This document shows, piece after piece, positions 44,280 through 46,283 of a stretch of 64,000 nt of DNA. Made by a program: the position numbers and the translations under genes. The notes beneath the pieces are model-generated. The model ran no database searches. It was not told where the DNA came from and saw nothing but the letters and a program-made list of their open reading frames with translations. Every line of letters begins with the position of its first letter. Positions within the stretch are counted from its first letter, which is position 1. This stretch comes from an uncultured delta proteobacterium (GTDB lineage: Bacteria > Desulfobacterota > Desulfobacteria > Desulfobacterales > UBA11574). The DNA lies in assembly GCA_963778575.1 (NCBI GenBank), contig CAVZUV010000008.1, positions 86,746-150,745 on the forward strand, written 5' to 3'.

Positions 44280-46283
44280 CTAATTCAACACCAAATCGAT
44301 GACCTCTTCCAATTCATTGATTTCGATGATCTGAATATCTTTTTTAATATCCTCGGAGATATCCTTGATGTCCGAATTGTTTCTGGCCGGGAAAACCACG
44401 GATTTGACACCGGCCCGGTGCGCGGCCAGGACCTTTTCCTTGACGCCGCCCACAGGCAGAATCCTTCCGCTTAACGTCAACTCGCCGGTCAGCGCGACGT
44501 TCCTTTTGCAGGAACGGTTCGTTATCAGGCTGATGAGCGCTACGGCGATGGTCACGCCGGCGGACGGACCGTCTTTAGGGATCGCGCCGGCAGGCACATG
44601 GATGTGAATGTCATGGGTTTCGAATAGGCTGTCCGGGATATTGAAAGCATCAGCGTGGCTTCGAATATAACTCATCGCCGCGTGAGCCGATTCCTTCATC
44701 ACGTCTCCCAATGACCCGGTGAGAATAAGATTGCCTTTTCCTTTCATTTTGGCGGCTTCAATAAAGATGATCTGGCCTCCGGCTTCCGTCCATGCCAGTC
44801 CGGTGGCCACGCCCACCCTTTCTCTGGCTTCTGCAATCTCGAAATAAAACTTTTGAGGGCCTAAAAAATCTTCCACCATTTCCGGCGTTAGATGGGTCGC
44901 TCCGTCTTTATACGCCCCGCGCAATGTTTCACGGGCGATTTTACGGCAAATGGATGCAATCTGACGTTTGAGATTTCTCAAACCCGCTTCCCGGGTGTAC
45001 TCCCGGATGATCTTATGGATGGTCTCCGGCGTGAAAACCGGCGGGTTTTCGGTGAGCCCCGCTTCTTCGATTTCTCTGGGGATTAAATATCGGGTTGCGA
45101 TTTTTGCTTTTTCTTCTTCCGTATACCCCAACAGGGTAATCACCTCCAGGCGGTCCAGCAGGGGGCCCGGAATAAGATCCAGGGCATTTGCAGTGGCGAT
45201 GAACATCACACGAGACAGGTCAAAGGGAACATCCAGGTAATGATCCGTAAAATGCGTATTCTGTTCGGGATCAAGAACCTCCAGCAAGGCCGCGGCCGGA
45301 TCCCCTTTAAAATCACCGCCGATTTTGTCGATTTCATCGAGCATAATCACGGGATTCTTTGTTTCCGCACGGCGTATTTCCTGAATAATTCTTCCCGGCA
45401 ACGCACCGACATAGCTTTTACGGTGCCCTCTTATTTCAGCCTCATCCTTCATGCCGGCCAGAGATATGCGAACAAATTTTCGTTCCAAACTCCTGGCAAT
45501 CGACATGCCCAGCGATGTTTTTCCGGTGCCGGGAGGGCCGGCAAAACAGAGTACCGGTCCTTTGGGCTCTAAACGAACTTTTTTCTTATACAATGCTTTT
45601 TGGATGGTTGAACGGATTTCATCGAGCCTTAACGGTTTGGTCAGATAATGGTATGATCCTTTTTTCATCGCCTCAATGGCCGTTGATACGGTGGCATACC
45701 CTGTGATGATAATCACTTCGGTACTTGGGTTGACCGCTTTGGCTTTTTCCAGAACCGTCATGCCGTCGACTTTTCCCATTTTGAGATCCGTGACGATAAC
45801 ATCAAAGGCACTTTTTTCCAGAAAATCCAACGCCTCTACACCATCGGAAGCGGTATTGACGTGATAGCCGTCTTTTTTAAAAACATGTTCCAGATTCTGG
45901 CGGGTAATTTTTTCATCATCCACCACCAGTATCTTGTGTTGGCCCGACATCTTGAGAATCCTGACGGAAAGATGCTCCAAAATGCGGTCTTTTATGTTGG
46001 CCAGTCCAAAATGATCTTCATCGAGGATGGATTCGGCCCGTTTAATATCGAGGTTGTCATTGGTCATTTTGTTCCAGGGCAGACTCAACAGATAATCGAT
46101 ATAGTTGATGCCGATGGTATATTCAGTGCTTGAAGGGGAGGTTTTGGTCAGCCGCTCGAGTTCTTTGTGGACGACTTTTTCTACCGGTTCGGGCATTTTG
46201 GCCCTTTGTACGTCTTCTTTAAGTTCATTGAGTTCCGACGGCAGTTCCTTCATTTGTCCTTTTTCCTTCTTAAATATTCGCAT
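44280..46283 (-). CDS. lon: Lon-type ATP-dependent protease lacking the N-terminal substrate domain and carrying an inserted receiver (REC) domain
   Basis: 667 aa. Lon linker [21 protein letters not shown], then REC ([15 protein letters not shown]...[13 protein letters not shown]...LTKP), then Walker [10 protein letters not shown], and the protease motif [15 protein letters not shown]. Confidence 0.85.
   Translation of the reverse strand: [667 protein letters not shown]

Follow-up and report, generated by a model that had tools for sequence, protein, structure and literature searches.

Can the motor of a bacterial protease be governed by a phosphorylation event on a domain buried in its own ATPase module? 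Bacteria normally tie regulated proteolysis to their signalling pathways in trans, either by way of adaptors (RssB and CpdR, for example) or by modification of the substrate. Our subject is a gene in a 64,000-nucleotide stretch of DNA from an uncultured delta proteobacterium (the whole stretch is what we call the window). It encodes a Lon protease with a receiver (REC) domain inside the chain, which we refer to as Lon-REC, and an earlier note made from the same DNA had read this architecture as proteolysis gated directly by phosphorylation. Our answer, to which we would attach a probability of roughly 0.6, is a branched circuit of one kinase and two receivers, in which phosphorylation of D166 would gate a specialised Lon that serves as the proteolytic output arm of the module. 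The features on which the argument draws are collected in Table 1.

Table 1. Coordinates in the window of Lon-REC, its parts and its candidate partners, with the basis for each assignment
Feature	Position	Strand	Basis
Lon-REC gene, LonA without N-domain, with inserted receiver	44280..46283	-	ORF, Pfam, TIGR00763, AF2 model
Retained LonA helical region, residues 1-112	45948..46283	-	Alignment to LonA; model helices
REC domain, NtrC type, residues 118-227	45603..45932	-	Pfam 3.6e-28; quintet invariant
AAA+ module, residues 245-457	44913..45551	-	Pfam AAA and Lon_lid; motifs invariant; codons
S16 protease domain, residues 466-666	44286..44888	-	Lon_C 1.7e-86; Ser574-Lys617 dyad
Candidate activator (EBP) palindrome GTTACAATACGCAAC	46373..46387	.	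GTTGCA-N3-TGCAAC, 2 mismatches
Candidate activator palindrome ATTGCAGATTGCAAC	46460..46474	.	GTTGCA-N3-TGCAAC, 1 mismatch
Predicted sigma54 -24/-12 promoter TGGCACAAGAGTTGCT	46554..46569	+	Exact consensus; divergent Usp-side operon
Divergent genes, predicted to be co-regulated	46576..47941	+	ORFs, Usp Pfam hit, motif scan
73-aa protein	46576-46797	+	ORF
Usp-domain protein	about 46835-47335	+	Usp Pfam hit
185-aa Usp-like protein	47384-47941	+	ORF; homolog synteny
CitMHS/TrkA_C anion permease, first gene of permease-kinase-activator string	53058..54872	+	Pfam
Predicted cognate histidine kinase	55809..57236	+	Pfam; sequence; synteny
Sigma54-dependent response regulator, REC-AAA+-HTH_8, DAFTGA loop	57142..58617	+	Pfam; synteny

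How is the protein built?

The ORF list gives Lon-REC an ATG start and 667 aa, and a Pfam search of the whole protein returned Response_reg (118-227), AAA (245-386), Lon_lid (406-457) and Lon_C (466-666), with no match to LON_substr_bdg (PF02190). The TIGR00763 model, 'endopeptidase La', aligns in two stretches for a total of 757 bits against a cutoff of 608, and NF008053/PRK10787 reaches 592 bits, below its equivalog cutoff of 891. The same interruption is evident in phmmer searches of the PDB, where residues 1-112 correspond to residues 234-345 of Thermus LonA (7p6u) and residues 240-666 to 351-775, so that the REC is cleanly inserted, with about 127 aa standing in place of some five loop residues. 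We therefore regard it as confirmed, by Pfam and the LonA alignment together, that this is a LonA-type protease with a complete internal REC, as the earlier note had proposed. Its further claim that the N-terminal substrate-recognition domain is missing also stands, given the lack of a PF02190 match and a LonA alignment that begins only at residue 234; the stop-to-stop frame extends just 4 codons further upstream, so no N-domain could be encoded in frame, and what lies beyond is a 386-bp intergenic region.

Two details of that earlier description needed adjustment. The protein does retain the LonA linker, but its start lies about 68 aa ahead of the LPWNKMT motif, and a helical region of some 110 aa is kept. 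Likewise, the REC does come close before Walker A, but in structural terms it sits just inside the AAA+ module and not in front of it, the insertion point being the loop that leads from the helix 'DHFGL..ILEHLSV' to strand beta1/Walker A. The retained N-terminal region consists of a three-helix bundle and this same helix preceding beta1 (the DHYGL helix of LonA); it aligns in addition to residues 8-103 of B. subtilis Lon (construct 3m6a, again by phmmer against the PDB), is modelled by AF2 as helices H11-28, H32-46, H53-67, H80-90 and H95-113, and contains H91, G93, L94, K98, R100 and L105 as invariant positions of the alignment.

The working parts appear to be in good order throughout. The REC scores 98.4 bits for Response_reg (Pfam gathering cutoff 30.2), has NtrC1, AtoC and ZraR as its closest matches in profile and PDB searches, and presents an acidic pocket (D122/D123), the acceptor D166 (codon 45786-45788), T194, Y213 and K216. 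The phospho-acceptor pocket of this complete receiver is intact: D122, D123, D166, T194 and K216 are invariant in three alignments (A1, A2 and A3), down to 46% identity. The AAA+ module comprises beta1, Walker A (K255), the pore loop Y291-V292, Walker B (D316/E317), N366, R378 and the lid. Across 61 sequences from two clades, which are 49-100% identical, K255, D316/E317, pore-loop Y291, sensor-1 N366 and R378 are invariant, as are the five REC residues and S574 (codon 44562-44564) and K617 (codon 44433-44435) of the protease; the ATPase motifs are intact, and so are those of the protease, whose Ser motif the earlier note had already called intact. Neither the sigma54 interaction domain (PF00158) nor the HTH (PF02954) finds a match in Lon-REC, and NtrC-family models hit the REC part alone.

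An AF2 model of the monomer, calculated from a two-clade alignment (pLDDT 79, pTM 0.70), superposes on N-truncated LonA chains with TMt values of up to 0.90; it was preferred to a run on a shallow one-clade alignment (pLDDT 66, pTM 0.39), which was set aside. The modelled REC adopts the canonical (beta-alpha)5 topology at pLDDT values of about 75-87, and is joined to its host by a 3-residue linker on the N-side and, on the C-side, by a hinge at 236-240 that is modelled with low confidence.

Is this a real and coherent family?

The identical Lon-REC sequence occurs on 7 contigs of up to 170 kb, and among the matches listed there are at least 350 homologs of about 665-680 aa with the same layout, drawn from independent assemblies in NCBI, JGI, ENA and Logan. 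Homologs of about 665 aa span the Desulfobacterales, Desulfobulbales, Desulfovibrionales and Nitrospirota, and their genomes include the complete D. propionicus DSM 2032 and a draft of the cultured Desulfobacter vibrioformis DSM 8776; one source even lists a homolog under the name 'response regulator receiver modulated ATP dependent protease'. The earlier note had named an assembly chimera among the findings that would refute its reading, and a rival explanation is accordingly a join of a response-regulator gene to a lon fragment, made either in assembly or in annotation. Beyond the slightly lower GC of the REC segment (0.445 versus 0.498 in the rest of the gene) nothing speaks for it, and the 7 contigs and the many independent assemblies carrying the same architecture exclude it, so that we consider it refuted and its residual probability negligible.

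In a tree of the AAA+-protease region only, with a canonical LonA sample that held no same-genome paralogs, one split parts 16 Lon-REC proteins from 60 canonical LonA with a bootstrap of 89/100. A frameshifted representative (P0129) distorted the midpoint rooting of the first tree, and the split was re-tested without it. Judged from these sequences, the Lon-REC family is a single, distinct LonA lineage with members in two phyla or more.

A divergent sub-branch (P0134, P0144 and P0149) keeps the layout and the five phospho-residues and has lost Walker A. Other apparent topologies of REC and Lon, which surfaced as multi-stretch hits in a search of representatives, were in fact either hybrid kinases or Lon proteins of the tandem-AAA kind.

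Has anything like it been described?

The earlier note knew of no characterised example, and this needs qualification, although the literature we found holds no biochemical characterisation of any member of the Lon-REC family. The design is conserved and already known from DVU3303 of Desulfovibrio (Nitratidesulfovibrio) vulgaris Hildenborough, which was presented as a response regulator, one "containing a lon protease", and as belonging to a three-component system with the kinase DVU3304 and the sigma54 activator DVU3305, by authors who also put forward the hypothesis of its phospho-activation (Rajeev 2011, PMC3333781). All three genes show pairwise cofitness >0.9 with the same phenotype sign (Trotter 2023, PMC10102598), some of which could reflect transposon polarity because DVU3303 is first in the operon. 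DVU3299 is listed as an 'anion transporter' (Trotter 2023, PMC10102598). A sigma54 promoter is present in D. vulgaris for DVU3302-3298 and absent for DVU3303-3305.

The system of the window and that of D. vulgaris both carry a receiver and an N-truncated Lon in one polypeptide (DVU3303 is annotated 'ATP-dependent protease La, truncation'), both pair it with a sigma54 response regulator as well as a histidine kinase, and both share GTTGCA-N3-TGCAAC in a divergent intergenic region, a sigma54 promoter confined to the Usp/membrane-protein side and a regulon with Usp-domain and anion-transporter genes. They differ in that the kinase-activator pair of the window stands outside the Lon operon, 9.5 kb away behind a decarboxylase operon, and in that the permease of the window is of the CitMHS and not the TauE type. 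With the Nitratidesulfovibrio liaohensis homolog P0447, which here stands in for DVU3303 of the same genus, Lon-REC is collinear and 49% identical. Compared in this way, through description, gene context and a same-genus homolog, Lon-REC most probably belongs with the DVU3303-DVU3304-DVU3305 family.

Which kinase might talk to it?

The kinase of most relevance to Lon-REC is predicted, from synteny in 10 related loci, to be the HAMP kinase of Table 1, and not the nearest kinase in the window. It has 2 TM segments, a periplasmic helical sensor, HAMP, HisKA with H261 and HATPase, and its full-length homologs (34-46% identity) occur no more than a few kb from Lon-REC, both at 9/9 loci and in D. 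propionicus. The sigma54 activator, whose true start is probably near 57247, has homologs of 47-59% identity adjoining Lon-REC in all nine of these loci; kinase and activator homologs together lie within about 0.1-4 kb of it there and in Desulfobulbus propionicus DSM 2032, and three loci have the order Lon-HK-EBP, like DVU3303-3305. Permease homologs, 73% and 55% identical, are placed directly beside Lon-REC in two loci (L001 and L009). Since the pair in the window is 9.5 kb from Lon-REC, with the decarboxylase operon between them, the linkage here depends on the synteny seen elsewhere.

The receivers themselves add to this picture. Identity between the Lon REC and the activator's REC is 51%, compared with 29-39% for the other RECs of the window; the corresponding value for Lon and activator RECs in relatives is 45-52%, and the two have an alpha1 pattern in common. 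Moreover, when receivers from the same locus are compared with those from different loci, an excess of similarity of +0.07 to +0.10 (p about 0.0003) falls in alpha1 and the beta5-alpha5 loop, about 3 times that in the rest of the REC, which itself has a small same-locus excess; the covariation signal overall is modest. This would suit a pair of paralogs served by one kinase, with phosphotransfer predicted to both. The nearest kinases, a dCache HK (34949-36658) with two single RECs and an HK at 6514-8172, were considered as partners and set aside, because their RECs have the lower identity to the Lon REC given above and do not have its alpha1 pattern.

What does the regulatory DNA suggest?

Both candidate sites for the activator sit in the 386-bp Lon/Usp intergenic region and were recognised with GTTGCA-N3-TGCAAC, the published motif of the DVU3305 orthologs, for which 9 related loci show an enrichment of ~21-fold next to Lon-REC. 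The second of them is the best such site in the window and lies 80 bp upstream of the predicted sigma54 promoter, which is in turn the sole exact match to the sigma54 consensus in the 64 kb, against a chance expectation of 0.03. For Lon-REC itself, the scan offered just a GG/GC core at 46359(-) that departs from the consensus by 4 mismatches, which leaves a sigma54 promoter of its own unsupported, and the promoter scan of the window found none upstream of the CitMHS permease. The products of all three divergent genes carry an (I/A)TFA(E/Q)A(G/N)E motif; a homolog of the 185-aa ORF adjoins Lon-REC in Desulfobacter vibrioformis, and in relatives it is Usp/TauE operons that run divergently from Lon-REC.

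What might the inserted receiver do?

In the branched circuit that we favour, the membrane-bound HAMP kinase would sense envelope or anion-related stress and phosphorylate two paralogous NtrC-type receivers. One belongs to the sigma54 activator, which would bind the palindromes at 46373-46474 and fire the promoter at 46554, turning on the small Usp-like proteins in this genome and, in relatives, anion permeases. The other resides within Lon itself, in the short loop that runs from the first AAA+ helix to beta1 and on to the Walker A P-loop, and phosphorylation of D166 is expected to shift its alpha4-beta5-alpha5 face. As alpha5 passes through a hinge of ~6 residues straight into beta1, such a shift could alter ATPase competence, hexamer packing or both, and would most likely set the enzyme to degrading a small range of substrates. 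The N-domain of LonA recognises damaged proteins, and so we propose that a Lon without it acts as a dedicated regulatory protease and not in quality control. The architecture, the intact motifs, the single lineage, the kinase/activator linkage, the shared DNA motif and the REC paralogy are direct observations, from which we infer phosphotransfer, the direction of the switch (activation), its physical mechanism and the substrates.

A quite different possibility is that the REC is a recruitment domain, a 'bait' and not a switch, which pairs through alpha4-beta5-alpha5 with the REC of the activator and hands the activator to the protease, thereby replacing the missing N-domain and providing pathway feedback, with phosphorylation setting which form of the activator is captured. 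RECs of the NtrC1/DctD type do dimerise through this face, the two receivers are close paralogs both in the window and in relatives, their genes are always linked, and the substrate-selecting domain is gone. However, destruction of the activator predicts a phenotype opposite to that of losing kinase or activator, whereas the D. vulgaris trio share one fitness pattern (with the caveat of polarity), and the same-locus excess falls in the kinase-contact segments, alpha1 and the beta5-alpha5 loop, as a shared kinase predicts; we think recruitment unlikely. Still less probable, in our opinion, is a phosphate sink, that is, a competing receiver that tunes the flux to the sigma54 activator and is attached to a Lon that is constitutive or phosphorylation-independent. 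Systems of one kinase and two receivers with sinks are known, for example the CheY sinks of Sinorhizobium chemotaxis, and an intact acceptor pocket and similarity in kinase specificity would suit a sink equally well. Nonetheless, a stand-alone REC would do for this purpose, yet the fusion is kept at one precise loop across several orders and two phyla, with every catalytic residue of the attached ATPase-protease invariant, and a sink mutant should hyper-activate the pathway, the opposite of the phenotype reported for D. vulgaris (PMC10102598).

We would be surprised, finally, if the REC were a purely structural pseudo-receiver, never phosphorylated in vivo, that stabilises the hexamer or caps the pore in place of the N-domain. 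N-truncated LonA constructs have defects in assembly and in substrate handling, and the sub-branch that lost Walker A and kept the layout shows that evolution can lead this scaffold to abandon the canonical enzyme cycle. Pseudo-receivers, however, normally lose the residues of phospho-chemistry, while the quintet here is invariant, even in that degenerate sub-branch, and linkage to a kinase is constant.

Returning to the gated protease of the branched circuit, its boldest form would make Lon-REC the first AAA+ protease with a motor switched directly by phosphotransfer, where D166~P would start ATP hydrolysis or ring closure, dedicated substrates or inhibitors would be removed, and one kinase would drive transcription and proteolysis together. 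We offer this as a tentative idea with the odds somewhat against it. The substrates or inhibitors might be the co-regulated small Usp-like proteins themselves, with their FAEAGE-type motif.

Why does it matter?

If the gating is true, a Lon with a receiver in its ATPase would be the most direct link known from a sensor kinase to the destruction of protein, and the family would furnish a natural experiment in how the alpha0-beta1 loop can serve to gate an AAA+ ring. Lon-REC proteins are common among sulfate reducers and their relatives, organisms of importance in anoxic sediments, souring and corrosion, and in D. vulgaris the DVU3303 family is tied to stress and chlorate phenotypes. Beyond the two earlier genomic mentions, what is new here is the exact insertion point, the evidence that one lineage spans at least two phyla, the naming of a candidate kinase in this genome and a conserved regulon signature, the last of which makes the system directly testable in the tractable D. 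vulgaris and Desulfobulbus propionicus.

How does it compare with other known systems?

Set against canonical LonA (E. coli, B. subtilis, M. taiwanensis, T. thermophilus and human LONP1), Lon-REC has in common some 50-60% of its residues in the AAA+ and protease modules, as judged by eye from two alignments, together with every catalytic motif, the three-helix bundle and the first AAA+ helix. It differs by the loss of the roughly 230-aa N-terminal domain, by the ~127-aa REC in the alpha0-beta1 loop and by its separate lineage. RssB (E. coli/Pseudomonas) and CpdR (Caulobacter/Brucella) are response-regulator adaptors that deliver substrate to, or prime, ClpXP in trans. There too a receiver ties two-component phosphorylation to ATP-dependent proteolysis, as is predicted for Lon-REC, and the Lon REC matches the NCBIfam models of CpdR (1.6e-20) and RssB (3e-19), but here the receiver is covalently inside the ATPase module of the protease, and the protease is Lon.

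By analogy, the closest mechanistic precedent would be the NtrC1/DctD/NtrC activators, in which REC phosphorylation controls assembly and activity of the AAA+ ring. They have a REC of the same type joined to such a ring, and the Lon REC matches the NtrC1 structures 1ny5, 1zy2 and 4l4u at about 1e-25 (phmmer against the PDB). Unlike them, Lon-REC has no GAFTGA loop, sigma54 interaction domain or DNA-binding domain, and its REC comes after the first AAA+ helix and not ahead of it. An equal spacing from REC to Walker A in the two was also considered and dropped, the distance being ~22 residues in Lon-REC versus ~57 in the activator of the window. The methylesterase CheB offers a further parallel, since there too a hydrolytic enzyme has a receiver joined to it in cis; its N-terminal REC blocks a small alpha/beta-hydrolase-like active site, and Asp phosphorylation gates activity, whereas the REC of Lon-REC is inserted internally, and its host is a hexameric machine of ATPase and protease.

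Architecture of Lon-REC

Lon-REC is the 667-residue product of an ATG-initiated minus-strand frame (44280..46283) that the stop-to-stop frame would extend upstream by four codons only, and the expectation of the earlier note, a Lon protease bearing a complete receiver (REC) domain, is borne out by Pfam (see table). The N-terminal substrate-recognition domain is indeed absent, with no LON_substr_bdg match in the protein (Pfam) and an alignment to solved structures that begins only at Thermus LonA residue 234 (residues 1-112 equal 234-345 and 240-666 equal 351-775). Since LonA aligns in these two blocks, the receiver must be a clean insertion of ~127 residues in a short loop, ~5-10 residues long in ordinary LonA; the NCBIfam endopeptidase La profile (TIGR00763, 757 bits) is also split over two stretches. 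As for the protein beginning at the linker helix, the entire ~110-residue helical region (three-helix bundle plus DHFGL helix) is kept, but the N-terminus lies ~68 residues ahead of the LPWNKMT motif. Similarly, the receiver does follow the helix and precede Walker A, but its insertion point, the loop between the DHFGL helix and strand beta1/Walker A, is structurally just inside the AAA+ module rather than ahead of it.

In the single-chain AlphaFold2 model, built with a two-clade alignment (pLDDT 79, pTM 0.70), helices 11-28, 32-46 and 53-67 form the three-helix bundle and are followed by helices 80-90 and 95-113, the latter joined through a three-residue link to a standard (beta-alpha)5 receiver (strands 117-121, 141-145, 162-166, 189-194 and 212-215; alpha5 220-237), and a low-confidence hinge (236-240) leads to AAA+ beta1 (244-248). 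Foldseek pairs this model with N-truncated LonA chains, the highest target-normalised TM being 0.90 (7yuh_A, rmsd 3.4 Å; 3m6a_A reaches 0.89), and in that search the REC insert was present in no solved structure.

Across 61 sequences from two clades (49-100% identity), invariant residues comprise D122, D123, D166, T194 and K216 of the receiver, K255 of Walker A, D316/E317 of Walker B, the pore-loop Y291, N366 and R378, and the protease dyad S574/K617, in agreement with the earlier description of an intact protease serine motif; their codons in Lon-REC are confirmed in the window DNA. Judged from sequence, the motor and protease of this ΔN-LonA are intact, as is the receiver built into its alpha0-beta1 loop.

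A family with a precedent

The earlier note knew of no characterised example, and this has to be corrected: Lon-REC belongs to the DVU3303 family, already described and genetically probed in D. vulgaris Hildenborough. DVU3303, annotated 'ATP-dependent protease La, truncation' (Rajeev et al. supplement), forms a three-component system with the kinase DVU3304 and the sigma54 activator DVU3305, which controls both its own operon and DVU3302-3298, a divergent set of genes for membrane and UspA-type proteins; orthologous pairs occur in other Desulfovibrio, Desulfomicrobium, Desulfohalobium, Thermodesulfovibrio, Thioalkalivibrio and Dechloromonas (Rajeev et al.). Trotter et al. 2023 (PMC10102598) found all three genes to be detrimental in chlorate, with pairwise cofitness >0.9, and connected this with their target, the anion transporter DVU3299. 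Our full-text literature search found no biochemical study of a DVU3303-type Lon-REC. The homolog from Nitratidesulfovibrio liaohensis, whose genus is now also that of D. vulgaris Hildenborough, is 49% identical to Lon-REC and aligns collinearly from the linker through REC and AAA+ to the protease, and through it we infer orthology with DVU3303. The basic idea was published in 2011; what is added here is the precise insertion point, the candidate kinase and the regulon signature, and the mechanism would be of interest to those who study AAA+ proteases as well as to those who study two-component systems.

That the gene model might be an artefact, such as the assembly chimera that the earlier note had allowed for, is a chance that we put at practically nil. 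The identical protein is found on seven contigs of up to 170 kb, the best 120 homologs listed (72-100% identity) are all REC+AAA+Lon_C proteins of ~665 aa, and searches seeded with diverged members from the Desulfobulbus and Desulfovibrionales clades each returned at least 120 further homologs with the same domains; cultured carriers include Desulfobacter vibrioformis DSM 8776 and Desulfobulbus propionicus DSM 2032. When 1.84 billion 50%-identity cluster representatives were scanned exhaustively (HMMER; query, residues 1-300), ~27 matched linker, REC and Walker A as one stretch, and canonical LonA proteins matched in two, skipping the REC. Contiguous coverage was also seen in at least nine loci of a species-representative genome scan, a sample from a single peptide pattern rather than a census, and these come from Desulfobacter, Desulfobulbus/Desulfobulbales/Desulfocapsaceae, Desulfomonilaceae, one delta-proteobacterial MAG, one 'Pseudomonadota' MAG and two Nitrospirota/Thermodesulfovibrionales. 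A single origin of the insertion fits these data, because one split (bootstrap 89/100) parts all 16 REC-bearing proteins from 60 canonical LonA proteins, a sample without same-genome paralogs, in a neighbour-joining tree of the AAA+-protease region with the REC excluded.

Several protein representatives from outside the window deserve mention. P0134, P0144 and P0149 (also P0127) form a divergent sub-branch that retains the linker-REC-AAA layout and the receiver DD/D/T/K residues but has lost Walker A (e.g. CFEGPSYEAHLSLG, CFTSGSDDRKAAVG) and the pore-loop Tyr; these ~380-aa fragments may be pseudo-ATPase paralogs. P0135, P0143 and P0163 are Lon proteases of ~1000-1170 aa in which a tandem pair of AAA modules precedes Lon_C, an unusual architecture unrelated to Lon-REC. 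P0140 (343 aa) follows Lon-REC almost to the letter through the N-terminal helices as far as 'ILVVDDEE', then continues with a different receiver and no ATPase; recombination or mis-assembly may explain it.

A proposed shared kinase for two receivers

No kinase gene adjoins Lon-REC in the window. Among the nine related loci, however, tblastn places full-length homologs of the window's HAMP kinase (34-46% identity) and sigma54 activator (47-59%) ~0.1-4 kb from Lon-REC in every one, in the order Lon-kinase-activator in three, so that Lon-REC is obligately linked to one such kinase and one such activator. The window thus has this module too, in two parts separated by a decarboxylase operon (carboxyltransferase, OAD beta, OAD-gamma-like protein and biotin carrier) that looks like an insertion or rearrangement, because the flanking parts are contiguous in Desulfobacter vibrioformis, where the divergent operon carries the 185-aa-ORF homolog, CitMHS, kinase and activator. 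CitMHS lies immediately ahead of Lon-REC in a Desulfocapsaceae MAG, and in D. propionicus Usp, TauE and a 280-aa gene are divergent from Lon-REC, with a pair of HAMP kinase and sigma54 activator genes convergent.

Features of Lon-REC, of its neighbourhood in the window and of related loci
Feature	Position	Strand	Remark
Response_reg	residues 118-227		Pfam 3.6e-28
AAA	residues 245-386		Pfam
Lon_lid	residues 406-457		Pfam
Lon_C	residues 466-666		Pfam 1.7e-86
GNAT gene			immediate neighbour, convergent with Lon-REC
Candidate activator site GTTACAATACGCAAC	46373-46387		Lon/Usp intergenic
Candidate activator site ATTGCAGATTGCAAC	46460-46474		Lon/Usp intergenic
Sigma54 -24/-12 consensus TGGCACAAGAGTTGCT	46554-46569		faces Usp side
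73-aa ORF	46576-46797	+	first in string divergent from Lon-REC
Usp-domain protein	46835-47335	+	second in divergent string
185-aa Usp-like ORF	47384-47941	+	third in divergent string
Na+-translocating decarboxylase operon, four genes	48146-52346	-	between Usp genes and CitMHS-kinase-activator string
Activator-like palindrome GTTTCAATATGAAAC	52688-52702		~355 bp upstream of CitMHS gene
Hydrophobic mini-ORF VDTHFLFGLVLIGFAFWLCFKFRKKK, 26 codons	52917-52997	+	strong AAGGAGG ribosome-binding site
CitMHS/TrkA_C anion permease	53058-54872		after decarboxylase operon
Cytidylate-kinase-like gene			between CitMHS permease and HAMP kinase
HAMP histidine kinase	55809-57236
Sigma54-dependent response regulator	57142-58617	+
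Small/Usp-like gene, motif variant	L003 8833-9357	-	related locus
Small/Usp-like gene, motif variant	L004 9404-9679	-	related locus
Small/Usp-like gene, motif variant	L004 8791-9399	-	related locus
Small/Usp-like gene, motif variant	L005 9152-9460	-	related locus

The Lon receiver is of the NtrC type (best matches: AtoC, ZraR and NtrC models and NtrC1 structures), and is 51% identical to the activator receiver versus 39, 37 and 29% for the three other receivers in the window. Helix alpha1 is the main determinant of kinase-regulator specificity, and its pattern x-I-A-R-x-N-L-E-H-[IV]-L-x-K is common to Lon and activator receivers and missing from the window's single-domain regulators (alpha1 identity 0.57 vs 0.21 and 0.29). 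Over ten loci, the two receivers are more alike within a locus than between loci: alpha1 together with the beta5-alpha5 segment shows an excess identity of 0.07-0.10 (permutation p ~0.0003), the remainder of the domain one of only 0.02-0.03, a modest but directional signal suggesting that both co-evolve with one kinase.

In the sigma54-contact loop the activator itself reads DAFTGA instead of GAFTGA, and the acidic pocket of its receiver has E-D instead of D-D; its true start is probably near 57247, because the first 95 nt of the annotated frame lie within the kinase gene. Elsewhere in the window (34949-38803, plus strand) a dCache histidine kinase precedes two single-domain receivers and then a TauE permease, which is read as two overlapping frames (37504-38007 and 37889-38803) that may reflect a frameshift. 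In a Thermodesulfovibrionales locus (L002, 14879-18576, minus strand) the Lon-kinase-activator genes are directly followed by a full-length homolog of this dCache kinase (36% identity), along with several single receivers of similar kind, so this second signalling set may travel with the module.

Regulatory DNA

Binding sites of DVU3305 orthologs read GTTGCA-N3-TGCAAC, as in GTTGCAAAATGCAACA and, ahead of a Desulfomicrobium gene, GCTGCAATCTGCAACA (Rajeev et al. Table S9). At no more than two mismatches the 64-kb window holds four matches, no more than chance overall, and two of the four fall in the 386-bp Lon/Usp intergenic region. The window's sole exact sigma54 consensus (chance expectation 0.03) lies 80-195 bp downstream of these two palindromes, and the Lon side offers only a GG/GC core with four mismatches. 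D. vulgaris has the same asymmetry, with a sigma54 promoter marked for DVU3302-3298 and lacking for DVU3303-3305 (Kazakov et al. 2015, PMC4641369). Windows of 850 bp at the Lon start of the nine related loci contain 15 copies of the palindrome, and a further 15 are spread over the other 161 kb, so that its density beside Lon is 21-fold higher; the one locus with no copy near the Lon start has four sites at the head of its CitMHS-Lon operon. At the level of sequence, the window does match a DVU3305-type regulon. A mini-ORF sits between a third palindrome and the CitMHS gene (see table), and no sigma54 promoter was found in the region ahead of that gene.

How might the receiver act?

We favour, with a probability of about 0.6, a branched and phospho-gated module in which the single HAMP kinase would phosphorylate both receivers. 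Gating of proteolysis, as the earlier note proposed, is plausible: phosphorylation of D166 would shift the alpha4-beta5-alpha5 face, and since alpha5 is predicted to continue into beta1 and the P-loop by way of a hinge of six residues, such a shift could alter ATPase competence or ring assembly. The nearest precedents are the NtrC1/DctD-type activators, whose receiver controls assembly of the AAA+ ring. Phosphorylation probably switches the protease on, because loss of protease, kinase or activator gives the same phenotype in D. vulgaris, although polarity could contribute, DVU3303 being the first gene of its operon.

The kinship of the two receivers could also be read as a bait, with the Lon receiver capturing the activator through REC-REC contact, which we consider unlikely. 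That the Lon receiver is a phosphate sink seems more doubtful still, and less credible again is a structural pseudo-receiver, its five key residues being those found invariant throughout the alignment.

For the phospho-gated protease, substrate range should be narrow because the N-domain is absent. A short motif (ITFAQANEHEMALDIM, ATFAEAGEHETALDIM, ITFAEAGESEYAVTSM) is common to the three frames divergent from Lon-REC, and variants of it (SFAEEGESETAR, TFAESGEWESAK, LALAEAGELLLA, AFAERNQPGEA) recur in small or Usp-like genes beside Lon-REC at distant loci, and the same motif stands in a read-through tail at the C-terminus of the homolog P0121 (TFAEAGEFDTAR). The small motif-bearing proteins have no Pfam match; they and their Usp-like counterparts are possible substrates of the protease, or possible partners.
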